From positions 882,368-946,367 of the forward strand of contig CAWJFT010000001.1 in the NCBI GenBank assembly GCA_963842235.1: DNA of 64,000 nt. Reading direction: 5' to 3'. This stretch comes from an uncultured Actinomycetes bacterium. Its GTDB lineage: Bacteria > Actinomycetota > Thermoleophilia > Gaiellales > Gaiellaceae. Positions within the stretch are counted from its first letter, which is position 1. Each line of letters opens with the position of its first letter. Positions 3,397-53,568 of the stretch are shown piece after piece. The notes beneath the pieces were generated by a model, which worked only from the letters and a program-made list of their open reading frames with translations, made no database searches and was not told where the DNA came from. Made by a program: the position numbers and the translations under genes.

Positions 3397-4295
3397 CCCG
3401 GCCCCGGCGCCGATACCGGGCGAAGCCCTCGCGTCGGCGGCTGTTCGTCCGGCGCCTGGTTGCGCTGGGCTTCCTCCTCGCTCTGGTGGGCCTGCTCGCC
3501 GGATCCGCGTGGGCGCTCTGGGGCCGCGGCGAAGAGGCTGCCCCGCAGCCCACTGCGGCGCCTCCACCTCCGAAACCGTTGCGCATCATCTTCCCGGAAG
3601 GCTTTACGCGCACGGACATGGCGAAGAGGATCGGCGAGGTGAACCAGATCGCTCGGGAGAAGCGCAATGTCCGTCCTCGGCTCTCCCCGCAGCGCTACCT
3701 GGCGCTCACGGAGGCCTCCTCGAAGGTGCCGCCCGCCTTCCTGCGGCAGGGGCGACCGACGAACCTCGAGGGGTTCTTGTTTCCCGCGACATACGAGTTC
3801 ACGAAGCGCACGACGACGCGGCAGCTCGTCAATGACCAGCTGGCGGCGTTCAAGAAGAACTGGGCGCGCGTGAACATGCGCTACGCCCGAAGCAAGAACC
3901 TGACGCCGTACGACGTGCTGACCATCGCGTCGTTGATCGAGAAGGAGGTGGCGGTGGCCCGGGAGCGGCCGCTCGTCGCCGGGGTCATCTACAACCGGCT
4001 GAAGGCGGGCATGACGCTTGGGATCGACGCGACGATCCGGTACGGGCTCGGCGTCCCGGCGACGGAGTCGCTGCGCGAGTCGCAGCTCAATGACCCGACG
4101 CCGTACAACACTCGGATCCATGCGGGGCTGCCGCCGACGCCGATCGCCAACCCTGGCCTGGCGTCGATCCAGGCCGCTGCGCATCCGGCCAAGGTCGACT
4201 ACCTCTTCTTCGTCCGCAAGCCGGACAAGAAGCACCACTTCTTTACGGCGTCCCAGCGCGAGTTCGACAACTACAAGAACGCCCACGGGTACTGA
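3372..4295 (+). CDS. mltG: endolytic murein transglycosylase MltG (YceG family)
   Basis: N-terminal TM segment, then LEGFLFPATYEF, LIEKE, IYNRL, IDATIRYG, YNTR..GLPPTPIANPG. Confidence 0.9.
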   Translation: MVEEPTTLTRPRRRYRAKPSRRRLFVRRLVALGFLLALVGLLAGSAWALWGRGEEAAPQPTAAPPPPKPLRIIFPEGFTRTDMAKRIGEVNQIAREKRNVRPRLSPQRYLALTEASSKVPPAFLRQGRPTNLEGFLFPATYEFTKRTTTRQLVNDQLAAFKKNWARVNMRYARSKNLTPYDVLTIASLIEKEVAVARERPLVAGVIYNRLKAGMTLGIDATIRYGLGVPATESLRESQLNDPTPYNTRIHAGLPPTPIANPGLASIQAAAHPAKVDYLFFVRKPDKKHHFFTASQREFDNYKNAHGY

Positions 4296-6003: not shown

Positions 6004-7307
6004 ACCGTCACATCGCGCTCATCGGGTTCATGGGCGCGGGGAAGTCGACCGTCGGGAAGCAGGTCGCCGTGCTCACCGGCCGGCCGTTCATCGACCTCGA
6101 CGCGGAGATCGAGCGCCGCCACGGGCCGATCCCGAAGCTGTTCGAGCGGGGCGAGGAGGAGTTCCGGCGGCTGGAGACGGTCGTCGCCGCCGAGATGCTT
6201 GCTCGCTCGCCGTCGGTGATCGCGCTCGGCGGCGGAGCGTTCGAGGCGGCGCGATCCGATCGCGCGCTGACCGTCCTGCTCGACGTCGACGTCGAGACGG
6301 CGTGGGAGCGAAGCCGGGAGAGCGACCGACCGCTGGCCCAGGACGAACCGAGCTTCCGCGCGCTCTATGCCCAGCGCGACTATCGAGCCGTTGCGGATGC
6401 GGTCGCCGAGGATGCGGAGGGCGTCTTGCTCGCCGCGCTCGGGATCGAGTTCGCCGGGCGCCCTGAAGCCGATGCGCTAATCGCCGATCCCCGGGCACTG
6501 GAGCTCCATCCCATCCAGCTCGGCGACACCTACACCGCCGAGGGGAAGACCCTCGCGGAGGCCGCGCGGCTCTGGCGGGAGCTCAGGGTCGGCCGCGACG
6601 CGACGATCGCCGCCTACGGCGGTGGGACGACCACCGACGTCGTCGGCTTCGTGGCTGCGACCTACATGCGCGGCGTCCGTTGGATCGCGCTGCCGACGAC
6701 CCTCGTCGGCCAGGTCGACGCCGCGATCGGGGGCAAGACGGCGGTCGACCTGCCGGAGGGCAAGAACCTCGTCGGTGCGTTCCACTATCCGGATCGGGTG
6801 CTGATCGACCCGTCGCTGCTCGTGACGCTTCCCGAGGCCGAGCGCCGAAACGGGATGGCCGAGGTGATCAAGACCGGCCTGCTCGTCGGCCGACCGCTCT
6901 GGGAGCTGCCCGACGAGGAGATGATCCGGGCGTGCGCCGCCTTCAAGGCGGGCGTCTGCCTGATGGATCCCTTCGAGCAGAAGGGCCGTCGCGAGATCCT
7001 CAACCTCGGCCACACCTTCGGGCACGCGCTCGAGGCCGCCTCGGACTACCGCCTCGCGCACGGCGAGGCGGTCGCGTTGGGCTTGACCGCTGCTCTGCGG
7101 CTCTCGGGCCTGGAGATCCCCGAGGTCCTCGAAGTGCAGCCGGTCCGCGTCGACCGCGAGCGCGCGTGGGCCGCGCTCCAGCGCGACAAGAAGGCGCGCG
7201 AGGGCAGAATCCGGCTCGTGCTGCTCGAGGGGCTCGGCAAGCCGGTTGTTCGCGAGGCCGAGCCCGGCGAGGTTCGCGCCGCCCTCGACGAGCTGATCGT
7301 GGCCTGA
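5988..7307 (+). CDS. aroKB: bifunctional shikimate kinase / 3-dehydroquinate synthase
   Basis: N-terminal LIGFMGAGKSTVG P-loop (AroK). C-terminal GGGTTTDVVGF, AAIGGKTAVD, NLGHTFGHALE, HGEAVALG (AroB). Confidence 0.85.
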   Translation: MATAVDRHIALIGFMGAGKSTVGKQVAVLTGRPFIDLDAEIERRHGPIPKLFERGEEEFRRLETVVAAEMLARSPSVIALGGGAFEAARSDRALTVLLDVDVETAWERSRESDRPLAQDEPSFRALYAQRDYRAVADAVAEDAEGVLLAALGIEFAGRPEADALIADPRALELHPIQLGDTYTAEGKTLAEAARLWRELRVGRDATIAAYGGGTTTDVVGFVAATYMRGVRWIALPTTLVGQVDAAIGGKTAVDLPEGKNLVGAFHYPDRVLIDPSLLVTLPEAERRNGMAEVIKTGLLVGRPLWELPDEEMIRACAAFKAGVCLMDPFEQKGRREILNLGHTFGHALEAASDYRLAHGEAVALGLTAALRLSGLEIPEVLEVQPVRVDRERAWAALQRDKKAREGRIRLVLLEGLGKPVVREAEPGEVRAALDELIVA

Positions 7308-23646: not shown

Positions 23647-24768
23647 ATGAACGTCGGCGTCCCCAAGGAGATCAAGCCGGACGAGTACCGCGTCGCGCTC
23701 ACGCCGGCAGGTGCGCTCGAGCTCACCCGCGACGGCCACTCGGTCGTGGTCGAGCAGGGAGCGGGGGAGGGCAGTGCCTTCAGGGACTCCGACTACAGCA
23801 GCGTCGGAGCGCGAATCGGCTCCGTCGCGGACGTTTGGGAGGCCGAGCTCATCCTCAAGGTCAAGGAGCCGCTGCCCGAGGAGTACACGAGGCTGCGCGA
23901 GGGTCAGGTGCTCTTCACCTACCTCCATCTCGCCGCGAGCGAGGATCTGACCCGGGCGCTGATGGAGAGCGGCGCGGCGTGCGTCGCATACGAGACCGTG
24001 GAGACGGACGACCGCGCGCTTCCGCTCCTCGCGCCGATGAGCGAGATCGCCGGCCGCCTTGCGGCGCAGGCCGGTGCGGCGTTCCTGGAGAAGCCGGTCG
24101 GTGGCCAAGGGCTCCTCCTCGGAGGCGTCCCGGGCGTGGCGCCGGGCGAAGCGGTGGTGATCGGTGGAGGGATGGTCGGCTACAACGCGGCCGTGATCGC
24201 GCTGGGGCTCGGCGCGCAGGTCACGATCCTCGAGCGCTCCATCGATCGGATGCGGCATCTGGAAGAGGTGCTCGGGTCGCGCGTCACGCTCCTGATGTCG
24301 TCCGGCCTCCAGATCCAGGAGTCGGTCGCGCATGCCGATGTCGTCATCGGCGCGGTGCTCATCCCCGGCGCGCTGGCGCCGAAGCTGATCACCCGCGAGA
24401 TGGTCGCCGGCATGAAAGACGGCTCAGTGATCGCCGACGTTGCGATCGACCAGGGCGGCTGTGTGGAGACGTCACGACCGACGACGCACTCTGAGCCGGT
24501 CTTCGTCGTCGACGGCGTCATCCACTACTGCGTCGCGAACATGCCCGGTGCCGTTCCGATCACCTCTACGAAGGCGTTGACGAACGCCACGCTGCCGTAT
24601 GTCGAGGGGATCGCGAACGAGGGTCTCCGCGAGGCGATCGCCCGTGATCGCGCGCTCGCGCGGGGTGTGAACGTGCTCGAAGGGAAGGTGACGTACGAAG
24701 CTGTGGCCGAAGCACACGGCCTCGACTTCACCCCGCTGGACGAGGTCCTCAGGTTCTCCCCGGTCTAG
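23647..24768 (+). CDS. ald: alanine dehydrogenase
   Basis: MNVGVPKEIK..EYRVALTP, VKEP, GGVPGV..VIGGGMVGYNAA, DVAIDQGG, HYCVANMPGAVP. Confidence 0.95.
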   Translation: MNVGVPKEIKPDEYRVALTPAGALELTRDGHSVVVEQGAGEGSAFRDSDYSSVGARIGSVADVWEAELILKVKEPLPEEYTRLREGQVLFTYLHLAASEDLTRALMESGAACVAYETVETDDRALPLLAPMSEIAGRLAAQAGAAFLEKPVGGQGLLLGGVPGVAPGEAVVIGGGMVGYNAAVIALGLGAQVTILERSIDRMRHLEEVLGSRVTLLMSSGLQIQESVAHADVVIGAVLIPGALAPKLITREMVAGMKDGSVIADVAIDQGGCVETSRPTTHSEPVFVVDGVIHYCVANMPGAVPITSTKALTNATLPYVEGIANEGLREAIARDRALARGVNVLEGKVTYEAVAEAHGLDFTPLDEVLRFSPV

Positions 24769-24992
24769 TGCCCCATCCAGCAATACATGCCGGCTTCTGG
24801 CCCGCGATCACGCGGCGCCAGAGCCCACCCTCCTCCTCACCAAGGTCTACAGACCTTGGCTCGTCGGAGTGCGAACTCTGGATTCGGACGGTCGTACCGG
24901 CGAAGCCGGCACGACCTCTGCTGGTCGGCGCCGACGAGTCGGCGCCTTGGGCTCGCGACCCAGAATTCCGGCGGCATTACCGGACGGGGCAC
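24768..24992. mobile_element. MITE copy A (225 bp, imperfect TIRs about 19 bp, TA target duplication)
   Basis: GTGCCCCATCCAGCAATAC at the left end matches the reverse complement of the right end (GTGCCCCGTCCGGTAATGC). It is flanked by TA/TA. The first 114 nt match copy B at 113 positions. Confidence 0.8.
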
Positions 24993-25138
24993 TAACCCTC
25001 TGCCGGCTCGGGCTCTTTCCGCTTCTTCCTGGGCGCGCTAGGCGTGATCTTGACGACCAGCCAGGTGACGCCCGCAGCGAGGCTGATCACCGCGGCGATG
25101 AAGATGACCATGCCGATGAGTCCCAGGACGGTCTCCAT
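24992..25138 (-). CDS. 48-aa single-TM protein
   Basis: Reverse ATG at 25138: METVLGLIGMVIFIAAVISLAAGVTWLVVKITPSAPRKKRKEPEPAEG. Its TAG stop is built from the MITE flank TA plus the terminal MITE base. It is below the ORF-track size cutoff. Confidence 0.45.
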   Translation of the reverse strand: METVLGLIGMVIFIAAVISLAAGVTWLVVKITPSAPRKKRKEPEPAEG

Positions 25139-25246
25139 GACCGCCGTAGAATAGCCCCCGTGAACCTCCGAGCTTCCTGCGGTGGCGCCTCGTGCTCGAG
25201 AGCACGGCGCCTGACGTCGTCCTTGGCCGCAACCTAGGAGGCATAC

Positions 25247-26413
25247 GTGCCGCGCGCGTGCGTCATCGTGCTCGACGCCGTGGGGGCGGGAGAGCTACCG
25301 GATGCGGCGGAATACGGCGACGAGGGCTCGGACACGCTCGGGAACGTCGCGAAGGCGGTCGGCGGGCTCGACCTTCCCAACCTCGAGGCGCTCGGGCTCG
25401 GCAACGTCGAGCCGCTCGAGGGCTGCCCACCCCAGCCGGGCGCTCCCGCCATCGCCGGGCGGCTGCTCGAGCGCTCGAAGGGCAAGGACACGACCACAGG
25501 CCACTGGGAGCTCATGGGGGTCGTCACGGAGCAGCCCTTCCCGACGTATCCGCACGGCTTTCCGTTCGAGGTCCTCGATCCATTCATGCACCGGACGGGA
25601 CGCGGCGTCCTGGGGAACAAGGCCGCCTCGGGGACGGAGATCATCGAGGAGCTCGGCGAGGAGCATCAGCGCACGGGCAAGTGGATCGTCTACACGTCCG
25701 CCGACTCGGTCTTCCAGATCGCCGCCCACGTCGACACGATCCCGCTGGATGAGCTCTACCAGGCTTCCGAGGTCGCCCGGGAGATCCTCACCGGCAAGCA
25801 CGCCGTCGGACGAGTCATCGCACGGCCTTTCGAAGGCGAGCCCGGCAACTACGTCCGGACGCCCGACCGGCACGATTGGTCCCTGAAACCCAGACAACCC
25901 AACTACCTGACCCTCGTGCGAGAGGCGGGCCACAAGGTGCATGCGGTCGGGAAGATTCGGGACATCTTCGCCGGCGTCGACATCGACGAATCGAACACGA
26001 CACGCTCGAACGTGGAGGGGATCACGCAGACCGAACGGCTGCTCCGGGAGCTCGACGACGGCCTCGTCTTCGTAAACCTGGTCGAGACCGACATGCTCTG
26101 GGGCCATCGCAACGATCCGGTCAACTTCCACCGGTGCCTTCAGGACTTCGACCGGCGGTTGCCCGACCTGCTTGCTGCGCTGCGCGATGGCGACATCCTC
26201 ATCCTGACGTCCGACCACGGGTGCGACCCCACGACACCTTCGACCGACCACTCCCGCGAGCATGCGCTGCTGCTTGCGTACGTGGAGGGGCGCAACGCAA
26301 GCGGCCACGTTCACCAGGGTGAGTTCGCCGACGTCGGATCGACGGTGAACGCCTGGCTCGGCGGAAAGGCTCCGAGGCGCGGGATCCCCGGCCAGCCGAT
26401 CGTCGAGTCTTGA
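25247..26413 (+). CDS. deoB: phosphopentomutase
   Basis: VIVLDAVGAGELPDA, DTTTGHWE, SADSVFQIAAH, ETDMLWGHRND, SDHGCDPT. AGGAGG lies 5 nt upstream of the GTG. Confidence 0.92.
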   Translation: MPRACVIVLDAVGAGELPDAAEYGDEGSDTLGNVAKAVGGLDLPNLEALGLGNVEPLEGCPPQPGAPAIAGRLLERSKGKDTTTGHWELMGVVTEQPFPTYPHGFPFEVLDPFMHRTGRGVLGNKAASGTEIIEELGEEHQRTGKWIVYTSADSVFQIAAHVDTIPLDELYQASEVAREILTGKHAVGRVIARPFEGEPGNYVRTPDRHDWSLKPRQPNYLTLVREAGHKVHAVGKIRDIFAGVDIDESNTTRSNVEGITQTERLLRELDDGLVFVNLVETDMLWGHRNDPVNFHRCLQDFDRRLPDLLAALRDGDILILTSDHGCDPTTPSTDHSREHALLLAYVEGRNASGHVHQGEFADVGSTVNAWLGGKAPRRGIPGQPIVES

Positions 26414-52076: not shown

Positions 52077-53390
52077 GTGTCCACGACTCTCGTCGCAGAC
52101 GCACTGATGGAGAGCTTCGTCATCGAGGGGGGCATCCCCCTCGGCGGCCGCGTCTCCGCTGCCGGAAACAAGAACGGCGCGCTGCCGATCCTGGCCGCGA
52201 CGCTGCTCGCGACCGAGCCTGTGGTGCTGAGCAACGTCCCGCGGATCCGGGACGTCGAGACGATGCTCGCTCTGCTCGCCGATGTCGGAGCCGACGTCGA
52301 CTGGCTCGGGCGGAACGAGGTCCGGATCGACTCCGCCAATGCGAGCAAGTTCGAGCTCGACCCCGAGCTCTGCAGCCGCATCCGCGCATCCTTTCTCCTG
52401 GCCGGCCCACTGCTTGCCCGTTTCGGGCGGGCGAGCGTGCCGCCGCCGGGCGGCGACGTGATCGGAAGGCGCCGGCTCGACCCGCACATCCATGCACTCG
52501 CCGAGCTCGGCGTCGAGATCGAGCTCAACGGCCGCTTCGACATGCAAACGTCGGGCCTTCAGGGGCGGCGGATCTTCCTCGACGAGGCGAGTGTCATGGC
52601 GACCGAGAACGCGATCATGGCCGCTGCGGTGGCGCGCGGCGAGACGGTGATCGGGAACGCCGCCTGCGAGCCGCACGTCCAGGATCTCTGCCGGTTCCTC
52701 TGTTCGCTTGGGGCGAGCATCGAGGGGATTGGCTCGAACGTCTTGCGGATCCGCGGCGTTCAACAGCTCTCGGGCGGCGAGTGGCGGATCGCTCCGGAGC
52801 ACATCGAGGTCGCGAGCTTCATCGGGCTCGCGGCGGTCACGGGCGGCGACGTGACCGTCGAGAACGTCGACATCGACGACCTGGTATCGATCCTCCCCGT
52901 CTTCGCCCGGCTCGGCGTGCACGTCGAGCTCGGAGAGTCGAGCGTGCGCGTCCCGCCCGGCCAGGAGCTGAAGATCGAGGACGACCTCGGCGACCAGATC
53001 CCGAAGATCGAGGACGGCCCGTGGCCGGCGTTCCCCGCCGACCTGACCTCGATCGCTCTCGCCGTGGCAACGCAAGCGGAGGGCACGGTGCTGATCTTCG
53101 AGAAGATGTTCGAGAACCGGCTGTTCTTCGTGGACAAGCTGGTCAGCATGGGCGCGAGGATCATCCTCTGCGACCCGCACCGCGCCGTCGTCACCGGCCC
53201 CGCGAAGCTGTACGGACAGCGCATGGCCAGTCCGGACATCCGCGCCGGGATGGCGATGTTGATCGCCGGTCTCTGCGCCGAGGGGGTCTCGACGATCGGA
53301 AACGTGGGCGAGATCGACCGCGGCTACGAGCGAATCGACGAACGGCTGCGCGCGCTCGGTGCGCGTATCGAACGCGTGGAGAACGCCTAG
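52077..53390 (+). CDS. murA: UDP-N-acetylglucosamine 1-carboxyvinyltransferase
   Basis: [60 protein letters not shown]. The start is GTG 52077 or ATG 52107. Confidence 0.93.
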
Positions 53391-53551
53391 TGCCCCATCC
53401 AGTAATACATGCCGGCTTCTGGCCCGCGATCACGCGGCGCCAGAGCCCACCCTCCTCCTCACCAAGGTCTACAGACCTTGGCTCGTCGGAGTGCGAACTC
53501 TGGCTTGGTGCTCGCGACCCAGAATTCCGGCGGCATTACTGGAAGGGGCAC
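53390..53551. mobile_element. MITE copy B (162 bp)
   Basis: GTGCCCCATCCAGTAATAC ... GCATTACTGGAAGGGGCAC, flanked by TA/TA. It lacks the 64-nt internal module of copy A. Confidence 0.8.
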
Positions 53552-53568
53552 TAGCGCCGCGTTTCGCG

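Follow-up and report, generated by a model that had tools for sequence, protein, structure and literature searches.

The alanine dehydrogenase locus

The window, meaning the whole 64,000-nucleotide stretch of DNA that was analyzed, comes from an uncultured Gaiellaceae actinomycete. At the locus considered here, the alanine dehydrogenase gene ald faces a convergent gene for a small membrane-type protein, and a 225-bp element, hereafter copy A, stands between them (Table 1). The small ORF is a lasting neighbor, as tblastn places a homologue adjoining ald in 72 of the 80 orthologous loci. An exact database look-up of the Ald protein of the window returned no record.

As put forward in a preliminary description of this DNA, the element is bounded by imperfect terminal inverted repeats and by a TA on either side, and direct reading bears out both points. 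The two termini, GTGCCCCATCCAGCAATAC and GTGCCCCGTCCGGTAATGC, agree at 15 of their 19 positions, the other four differing by transitions only. A degenerate terminal-repeat pattern is found four times in the window for 0.11 occurrences expected, and folding of copy A against shuffled sequences gives a z of -7.1 for the + strand and of -11.4 for the - strand. Together, this excess of terminal repeats and a fold far above that of shuffles place copy A beyond chance. In the orientation adopted for the family described below, its sense strand is the + strand of the window. A scan of positions 24500-25300 for terminators and promoters found none.

Because the element starts with G and ends with C, each TA reads as TAG toward its own gene. 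Thus, the stop codon of ald (24766-24768) is made of the left TA and the first G of the element, whereas that of the 48-aa ORF is made of the right TA and the terminal base on its side. It follows directly from the sequence that both ORFs keep their length after the insertion, as had been claimed.

Table 1. Features of the ald locus and second copy of the element in the window.
Feature	Positions	Strand	Basis or detail
Alanine dehydrogenase gene ald	23647..24768	+	ORF list; Pfam AlaDh_PNT_N (E = 4e-47) and AlaDh_PNT_C (E = 2e-84)
Left copy of target TA	24766..24767		Sequence; single TA in the empty site of L128
MITE copy A	24768..24992	+	225 bp; direct sequence reading; missing in L128 and L011 at the orthologous site
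Left terminal inverted repeat	24768..24786	+	GTGCCCCATCCAGCAATAC
Stop-free frame with GTG start	24768..24995	+	75 codons; ends with TAA (24993-24995), made of the right TA and the next A
Two-hairpin module	24888..24949	+	About 63 nt (21 codons); alignment with copy B
Right terminal inverted repeat	24974..24992	-	GTGCCCCGTCCGGTAATGC; end of the + strand is SD-like GGACGGGGCAC
Conserved small ORF (48 aa, membrane-type), convergent with ald	24992..25138	-	ORF list; tblastn homologues beside ald
Right copy of target TA	24993..24994		Sequence; single TA in the empty site of L128
MITE copy B	53390..53551	+	Canonical 162-bp form; flanking TA at 53388-53389 and 53552-53553

Empty sites and duplication of the target

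The preliminary description had restored an uninterrupted site by removing the element and one TA, so that the ald TAA and the TAG of the 48-aa gene fell on the same TA, and had proposed that relatives be compared. The metagenome contig L128 carries exactly this site, ccggtc-TA-accctc, with both stop codons on its only TA, against two TA in the window. Its flanks are identical to those of the window at 72/78 and 80/84 positions by the junction and at about 97-99% over 0.9-1.5 kb. The ald junction is also empty in L011, the copy A segment is missing from all 80 orthologous ald loci, and the overlapping layout of the two stops is found in 34 of 72 orthologous loci.

Reciprocal pairs of filled and empty sites were found for L011 and the window, for L020 and the window, and for L035/L030 and L012. 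The empty site of L012, filled in L035, reads GAC-TAG, i.e., a CTAG target with one TA. In both L128 versus the window and L012 versus L035, one TA in the empty site corresponds to two in the filled one, which is a duplication of the target. Two further configurations were observed, namely two tandem copies having one TA between them in common (L001) and a same TA filled in both orientations in different lineages. That copy A is a MITE inserted into stop codons with duplication of the TA can be held with high confidence.

A dispersed family of elements

A second copy, copy B, is present in the window. Its left TA and following G form the TAG stop of a MurA-like gene (murA, ending at 53390), and an IGPD (hisB-like) gene begins some 17 nt downstream of it. 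Elsewhere, a terminal-repeat scan took in at least 119 loci, from MAGs of Gaiellaceae/Thermoleophilia, and paired-end copies shorter than 400 bp were retained for analysis, orientation being settable in 84 of them. Among the matches listed, there are at least 95 such copies, 69 of them being 162 bp long; lengths range from 162 to 231 bp, the terminal inverted repeats recur in conserved form in over 90 copies, and the 84 oriented copies occupy 70 distinct contexts. Carriers of the family include the complete Gaiellales chromosomes OY969109.1 and CAVSKK010000001.1. Copies are more alike within a genome (median identity 95%) than between genomes (83%), which indicates lineage-specific amplification.

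Small size, lack of an internal transposase, dispersed copies, and presence/absence polymorphism are the features of a MITE. The identification as a MITE given in the preliminary description holds, with copy B in the window and, for the copy count in relatives that it had called for, over 90 copies spread across some 70 unrelated contexts among the matches listed. Copy A is a member of a previously undescribed MITE family of Gaiellales/Thermoleophilia soil Actinobacteria, and it is the canonical 162-bp form plus an extra 63-nt module. This module of two hairpins separates the 225-bp copies from the 162-bp ones, and its offset differs in other copies.

Target preference and stop codons

The flank is TA on the left in 61 of the 84 oriented copies, on the right in 45, and on both sides in 30. 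At position -3, C (32 copies) is ahead of T (14), G (11), and A (4); at position +3 after the right TA, the counts are 28 for G, 12 for A, 4 for C, and 1 for T, TAG being the commonest right-flank triplet. The target is thus palindromic, C-TA-G or T-TA-A like. Elements of the IS630 family have palindromic NTAN targets and prefer CTAG.

The idea that TA is scarce in this genome and concentrated in stop codons was half right. TA is indeed depleted in the window (617 observed versus 1521 expected), but only 25 of the 617 (about 4%) lie within stop codons, and the concentration is true of CTAG only (14/40, 35%). Since the target is CTAG-like and a third of the CTAG of the window lie in stop codons, a sizeable fraction of the surviving copies lies precisely on stop codons. 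A tabulation of insertion sites relative to stops, as suggested earlier, shows an upstream sense gene ending exactly at TA plus G in 30 of 84 copies and a downstream antisense gene ending at C plus TA in 10 of 84; the flanking-gene calls behind these counts, like those behind the orientation counts given below, come from a GC3 heuristic and are rough.

An open frame between co-directional genes

The element was initially considered to be without coding capacity. This stands as far as a transposase is concerned, but a 75-codon ORF spans copy A, and its frame is conserved throughout the family. Indeed, 78 of 84 copies have an open frame +1, versus 56, 55, 32, 6, and 3 for the other five frames. 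Among 66 canonical copies, a stop interrupts frame 1 in 3, versus 22 for frame 2 and 22 for frame 3. In copy A, the GTG start of the frame overlaps the ald stop (TAGTG).

The flanks follow the same frame. For 61 of 84 copies, the right flank supplies an in-frame stop. In this flank, TGA and TAA are found in a ratio of 21:12 versus 1:28 for TGG and TAG (p = 5e-7 by Fisher's test; p = 3e-5 when each site contributes a single copy). This contrast indicates that selection retains a stop codon in the right flank. A start codon occupies positions +3..+5 in 40 of 84 copies, versus 6 of 84 for the mirrored position, and in 28 of these 40 it is in frame with the called downstream gene. Between co-directional genes, 28 copies are in sense and 5 in antisense orientation (p = 7e-5), a bias that persists with one copy per site (23 versus 5, p = 9e-4), subject to the rough gene calls already mentioned. 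Finally, the duplex between the right end of the element and the anti-SD has a mean energy of -8.2 kcal/mol.

A conserved real protein was considered as an explanation of the frame and rejected. Codon-position periodicity is absent (0.126, 0.132, and 0.128), the frame-1 peptides of copies A and B have no match in Pfam, and the element peptide has only 3 matches among 5.8 billion database proteins. The lack of periodicity and the scarcity of protein matches indicate that the amino-acid sequence is not what counts.

A mechanism may be proposed in which translation itself matters. At ald, the element entered the single TA of GGTC-TA-ACCC and duplicated it, neither protein being altered in length. 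The sense strand of the family offers a stop-free frame with a length that is a multiple of three, whose terminal GTG overlaps the upstream stop as UAGUG and which ends at the stop of the right flank, often overlapping the start of the next gene (UGAUG, UAAUG, or UAGUG), with an SD-like GGAAGGGG placed 5 nt upstream of this downstream start. Ribosomes arriving from the upstream gene would re-start on the GTG, traverse and unfold the hairpin, and pass to the downstream gene. Such a relay would avoid polarity, with no need for the peptide sequence itself to be conserved. A translational relay of this kind within operons has a little under an even chance of being correct. A similar or slightly lower chance applies to the fuller version, in which a ribosome-relay cassette, seated at operon stop/start junctions and translated as a mini-cistron of no meaning in itself, would combine with opposite selection on the two strands, the sense fold being kept weak and the antisense fold strong.

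Several observations weigh against a relay. The founder consensus is open in four frames, so part of the openness of frame 1 is inherited. Of the high-frequency variants that could create a stop, none of the 16 for frame 1 is seen, versus 6 of the 33 for frames 2 and 3, a marginal difference (p ~0.04), and length variants show only a weak bias, about nine lengths being multiples of three and about five not. Moreover, the stronger fold of the antisense strand is accounted for by a relay only indirectly. The ald site is a poor test of the proposal, as copy A lies there between convergent genes and a relay function would be irrelevant.

The element could also be a MITE that is not translated at all. 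In that case, antisense insertions would be purged because the stabler antisense RNA hairpin would end or destabilize operon transcripts, and the stop/start pattern of the flanks would be inherited from the TAATG/TAGTG overlap junctions that supply TA targets. The fold energies agree with such purging, as the antisense strand has the stabler fold in every one of 70 copies (mean -117 versus -94.5 kcal/mol) and also in the consensus (-82 versus -43 kcal/mol). Stop/start overlaps bearing a TA are natural targets, so the TAG or TAA on the right may be the original stop, and the absence of amino-acid constraint is in line with a lack of translation. However, this explanation leaves without account the frequent change of TAA to TGA when that of TAG to TGG is near-absent (the 21:12 versus 1:28 given above), the scarcity of TAC and TAT on the right compared with the mirror position on the left, and the rarity of stops in frame 1 while those of frames 2 and 3 spread. 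It is rather unlikely. The overall best explanation remains a TA-duplicating MITE on a shared stop TA, from a family shaped for tolerance within operons, with a probability of roughly 0.8.

The putative mobilizing enzyme

The family is probably mobilized by a DDE transposase acting in trans, of the IS630/Tc1-mariner type or possibly of the IS427-group IS5 type. The case for IS630, a type already named in the preliminary description, consists of the duplicated TA, the inverted repeats, and the preference for CTAG. These three features are upheld, but an autonomous partner with matching ends or a transposase was found neither in the window nor in 199 loci. Similar footprints are possible for IS427-group IS5 elements. 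Inverted ends 0.6-3.5 kb apart, searched for in the window and the first 119 loci, belonged in every case to a pair of distinct MITEs enclosing housekeeping genes, such as the tsf-pyrH-frr-uppS cluster in L113, whereas solo ends are truncated copies, e.g., beside a PIN-like ORF in L010. In the stretches of the window without called genes, a peptidase, GlyQ, and an aminotransferase are encoded but no transposase, and a search of plasmids returned no related sequence.

A Y1 transposase, REPIN/RAYT-like or IS200/IS605-like, would act instead through single-stranded hairpin DNA, so that the strand structure and the orientation bias would be mechanistic. Beyond the biased orientation and the DDE partner missing from the window, the 199 loci, and the plasmids, this would suit an element forming one long hairpin with compensatory changes (28 two-sided pairs versus 11 +/- 1.8 in shuffles). 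It would also suit the strand asymmetry of mismatches, counted over pair columns in which most copies keep a Watson-Crick pair, where antisense G.U (141 cells in 25 columns) exceeds A.C (28 cells in 5 columns; p = 3e-4) under a symmetric mutational input. A mutational strand bias behind this wobble asymmetry was itself rejected, unique transitions being symmetric (C>T 19 versus G>A 19; A>G 12 versus T>C 14). Y1 elements, however, make no target duplication and insert beside an asymmetric tetra- or pentanucleotide. Here, comparison of filled with empty sites reveals a genuine duplication of TA, the target is palindromic (C-TA-G or T-TA-A), the inverted repeats at the ends are symmetric, tandem copies have one TA in common, and one TA can be filled in both orientations across lineages. 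A Y1 origin is thus very improbable.

Still more improbable is a conserved gene for a structured non-coding RNA with coincidental TA flanks, which the preliminary description had named as a refuting outcome: a strong fold (notably on the - strand) and helices backed by covariation would fit it, but copies in about 70 unrelated contexts, TA flanks recurring family-wide, and the absence of the segment from the orthologous site of L128, despite near-identical flanks, and from 80/80 ald loci rule it out as primary identity, as does the lack of any Rfam family at E<1 for the locus or at the gathering threshold for the whole window. A sub-threshold Twister-P5 match (20.6 bits versus a cut-off of 37.6) was treated as a chance hit.

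Relation to known repeats

Together with Correia/NEMIS and ERIC, the RUP element of S. pneumoniae, thought to be mobilized by IS630-Spn1, is among the bacterial MITEs that duplicate a TA (PMC2229807). The Gaiellales family resembles them in its size range (100-230 bp), terminal inverted repeats, TA duplication, multiple and mostly intergenic copies, and transcripts folding end to end into a stem-loop. A contiguous ORF is also carried by ERIC and by the 107-bp form of Correia (PMC2229807), whereas RUP, unlike the Gaiellales family, has stops in all six frames. The family differs from all three by its host clade, by the absence of sequence similarity to them and of an identified parent IS, by termini (TA|GTG...CAC|TA) that rebuild TAG on both sides, by a frame overlapping the stop and start of neighboring genes, and by a strong bias toward the sense orientation. 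RPE of Rickettsia and YPAL of Yersinia are also palindromic mobile repeats with a stop-free frame, a multiple of three long, that can be translated harmlessly (PMC2229807). RPE and YPAL are fused in frame inside host genes, whereas the Gaiellales family lies between genes and its peptide is found in just the 3 database proteins mentioned above.

The closest parallel in layout is offered by the mycobacterial MIRUs, which were reportedly described originally by Supply et al. in 1997. According to PMC12548453, MIRUs are located, like the Gaiellales family, at cistron junctions, oriented with the genes, and carry a short ORF overlapping the stop and start of the neighbors, a layout thought to permit insertion with minimal effect on expression. 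The sense placement between co-directional genes and the overlaps of the Gaiellales frame with the neighboring stop and start suggest, by analogy, an operon-compatible design similar to that of MIRUs. However, MIRUs are direct repeats of 40-100 bp, often in tandem arrays, with a -4 nt overlap and without inverted repeats or TA duplication, whereas the Gaiellales element is a hairpin-forming MITE occurring as single copies, with inverted repeats, TA duplication, and an overlap of the -1 type (UAGUG, UGAUG). It would, therefore, be MIRU-like in its working but is not a member of the MIRU family.

Copy A provides a clean natural example of a transposon lodged in the last safe nucleotides of a compact GC-rich genome, as it inserts at the TA of stop codons and supplies, with its own terminal bases, a new stop for each strand. 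Should the relay prove true, this parasitic DNA would escape operon polarity by being translated and not by avoiding genes, and the proposal made for MIRUs would extend to a classical cut-and-paste MITE. On a practical side, the family is common in Gaiellales MAGs and can thus break assemblies, and its open frame is seldom called by gene callers, as reflected by the three database proteins. The filled and empty sites could be of use as a strain-level marker.

Insertion at a stop-codon TA shared by two genes

The preliminary description had placed a 225-bp inverted-repeat MITE, referred to here as copy A, on a TA common to the stop codons of the convergent ald gene and a 48-aa ORF. Direct reading of the sequence confirmed its TA-flanked terminal inverted repeats, which match at 15 of 19 positions with four mismatches that are all transitions, as well as the TAG formed on each side by a TA and a terminal base of the element. 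Searching metagenomes for the Ald protein identified 80 orthologous loci, and the element is absent from all 80. In contig L128 (Ga0184624_10002614), the 0.9-1.5 kb to either side of the junction are approximately 97-99% identical to the window; the junction itself is gccggtc-TA-accctcg, compared with ccggtc-TA-[225 bp]-TA-accctct in the window. In this relative, the ald stop TAA and the TAG stop of the convergent small gene share a single TA, matching base for base the empty site that had been reconstructed by removing the element, and the comparison with relatives that had been called for thus yields an exact single-TA site. Because of L128, insertion at ald is proven, and the core interpretation of the preliminary description is supported, verified as it is by this exact empty site. 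Stops overlapping in this manner (CTAG or CTAA) are seen at 34 of the 72 orthologous loci, so that this is the ancestral arrangement.

Other sites are also found both filled and empty. The more distant genome L011, likewise empty at the ald junction, carries a copy at an aldo/keto reductase gene's stop codon, where the window (~23622) is empty. Locus L020 is filled at a position corresponding to an empty one in the window (~11980), and L035 and L030 are filled at a site that is empty in L012, which reads GAC-TAG with one TA.

Features of the element and its surroundings in the window
Feature	Coordinates	Strand	Description
ald ORF	23647-24768	+	alanine dehydrogenase by Pfam; stop TAG = left TA + first G of element
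Element (copy A)	24768-24992		GTGCCCCATCCAGCAATAC...GCATTACCGGACGGGGCAC; TA on both sides
63-nt module	24888-24949		two hairpins: GGTCGTaCCGGC-GAAG-GCCGGcACGACC and GGCGCCGAC-GAG-TCGGCGCC
48-aa ORF	24992-25138	-	stop TAG = right TA + element's last base
Second copy	53390-53551		162 bp; TA/TA flanks (53388-53553)

The 48-aa ORF is hydrophobic, convergent with ald and adjacent to it in 72 of the 80 orthologous loci. It matched no Pfam family but probably encodes a genuine small membrane protein, since it is conserved beside ald across many relatives. In one clade of relatives (L151, L155 at ~3622-3770, L174, L177, L180, L182 and L186), a different conserved insert of ~140 nt, beginning ...GCACCCCCGCCCTTAATTGGGTGGGGTGTCACCCTCCGCCCACGA and lacking any Rfam match, separates ald (TGA) from the small membrane gene.

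A family of repeated copies

The terminal-repeat pattern occurs four times in the window, where 0.11 occurrences would be expected, and the two outside copy A are the ends of a second copy. This copy is 98% identical to copy A across the first 117-120 nt, is devoid of the 63-nt internal piece and is inserted precisely at the TAG stop codon of a MurA-like gene, with an IGPD gene downstream. A family scan with a degenerate end pattern and one genome per species gave at least 119 loci; among the matches listed, the true ones are nearly all MAGs labelled Gaiellaceae, Gaiellales, Thermoleophilia or "Actinomycetes". At least 95 paired-end copies below 400 bp were recovered, 69 of those 95 being exactly 162 bp long, and 84 copies among the matches listed could be oriented, in 70 distinct genomic contexts by flanking sequence. 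Median copy-copy identity in the same set is 95% within one genome and 83% between genomes, which points to amplification within lineages. Copy A folds far better than shuffled sequences (z = -7.1 on the + strand, -11.4 on the - strand), and Rfam searches of the locus and of the whole window gave no match. With its 70 contexts, a second copy in the window and no Rfam match, the segment is indeed a MITE rather than a structured RNA gene.

Locus L001 holds a tandem pair (6682-6843 and 6846-7007) with one TA in common. Derivatives of 42-48 bp consisting of just the two terminal repeats are found in L004, L078 and L089, and in L113 (3300-5650) fragments or variants occupy several consecutive gene boundaries in a housekeeping cluster (tsf, pyrH, frr, uppS, cdsA).

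Target choice and family assignment

Among the matches listed, read in element orientation, TA stands on the left of 61 of 84 copies, preceded by C (32), T (14), G (11) or A (4), and on the right of 45 of 84, followed by G (28), A (12), C (4) or T (1). The target preference is therefore palindromic, C-TA-G or T-TA-A. IS630 elements are known for such CTAG/TTAA-like targets, and IS427-group IS5 elements can look similar. No autonomous partner or transposase was found in the window, the 199 loci fetched from other genomes and metagenomes, or plasmids, so that the footprint is the sole basis of the proposed IS630/Tc1-mariner assignment.

TA was said to be scarce and concentrated in stop codons. 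With 617 TA in the window where 1521 are expected, it is depleted, but only 25 of the 617 lie in stop codons and the concentration does not hold for TA; of CTAG sites, 14 of 40 lie there (rough gene calls). Among the matches listed, TA+G forms the exact end of an upstream sense gene in 30 of 84 copies, and C+TA that of a downstream antisense gene in 10 of 84. At 69% GC, TGA is expected to dominate as stop codon; TAG is the commonest in the window (24 of 47 called genes, rough calls), and this high usage provides more CTAG stop-codon targets. Copies 94% identical to each other lie in opposite orientations on the murA stop TA of the window and of L111 (1529-1690, after ...ARIERVEN(A/I)*, at the same TA), which implies either independent hits on one TA or inversion in place.

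Strand asymmetry and a coupled open frame

Both strands fold end-to-end, with helices kept through compensatory changes. On the antisense strand (opposite to the window + strand for copy A), both partners have changed in 28 pairs, compared with 11 +/- 1.8 for shuffled and 7-15 for slid controls, with similar figures for the sense strand. Such covarying helices are expected of a palindromic transposon and do not by themselves indicate an RNA function. Unexpectedly, the strands differ: among the matches listed, the antisense RNA folds better in 70 of 70 canonical 162-bp copies (mean -117 versus -94.5 kcal/mol). In pair columns holding a Watson-Crick pair in most copies, antisense helix mismatches are G.U in 141 cells (25 columns) versus A.C in 28 cells (5 columns; p = 3e-4). 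Biased mutation input was rejected as the cause, transition input being symmetric. Pairing is thus either favoured on the antisense strand or disfavoured on the sense strand, and the latter would fit a translated sense strand.

The element had been described as having no coding capacity, a claim contradicted by a conserved full-length frame. Frame 1, read in sense from the terminal GTG, is open in 78 of 84 copies among the matches listed, versus 56, 55, 32, 6 and 3 for the remaining frames; stops occur in 3 of 66 copies in frame 1, and frames 2 and 3 each have them in 22 of 66. Element lengths are mostly 3n, which is weak evidence after allowing for shared ancestry. The triplet directly after the element is a frame-1 stop in 61 of 84 copies among the matches listed (TAG 28, TGA 21, TAA 12). 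A TAG or TAA there could be the original stop codon with its duplicated TA, an origin excluded for TGA beside a left-hand TA. In this set, TGA:TAA is 21:12 versus 1:28 for TGG:TAG (Fisher p = 5e-7; 3e-5 with one copy per site), a skew absent from the left-hand mirror position across the 84 copies. A stop codon is therefore kept to the right of the element.

A start codon follows at +3..+5 (TGATG, TAATG, TAGTG) in 40 of 84 copies versus 6 of 84 at the mirror position, among the matches listed, and is in frame with the called downstream gene in 28 of these 40; most other sense downstream genes there have an in-frame start within ~10 nt of the right end. On the right the element ends in the SD-like GGAAGGGGCAC, 5 nt upstream of the +3 start. 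Between co-directional genes, 28 listed copies are sense and 5 antisense (p = 7e-5). The peptide sequence is not under selection, because frame-1 codon positions lack periodicity and the peptide has no Pfam match and only three matching proteins among 5.8 billion.

The best reading is that the element would be an operon-compatible insert tolerated through its coupled frame 1: the upstream stop would overlap its GTG, ribosomes would read through frame 1, and the frame-1 stop would overlap the next gene's start. MIRUs, whose internal frame is likewise coupled to the neighbours' stop and start, are thought to be tolerated by the same arrangement (PMC12548453). The element belongs to the TA-duplicating MITEs, a well-known bacterial class (PMC2229807), among which it is unusual in that a stop codon is restored at each end, a coupled mini-ORF crosses it and its copies are biased to the sense orientation. 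The family is new and comes from a poorly studied clade; no report of MITEs in Gaiellales was found among the papers searched.

The 63-nt module of copy A also occurs in L086 (3118-3147) and in the 144-bp copies of L017 and L057. It behaves like a nested insert, lying at offset 120, at offset 22 or in place of the centre depending on the copy, and the 3n length is always preserved in the copies that bear it.
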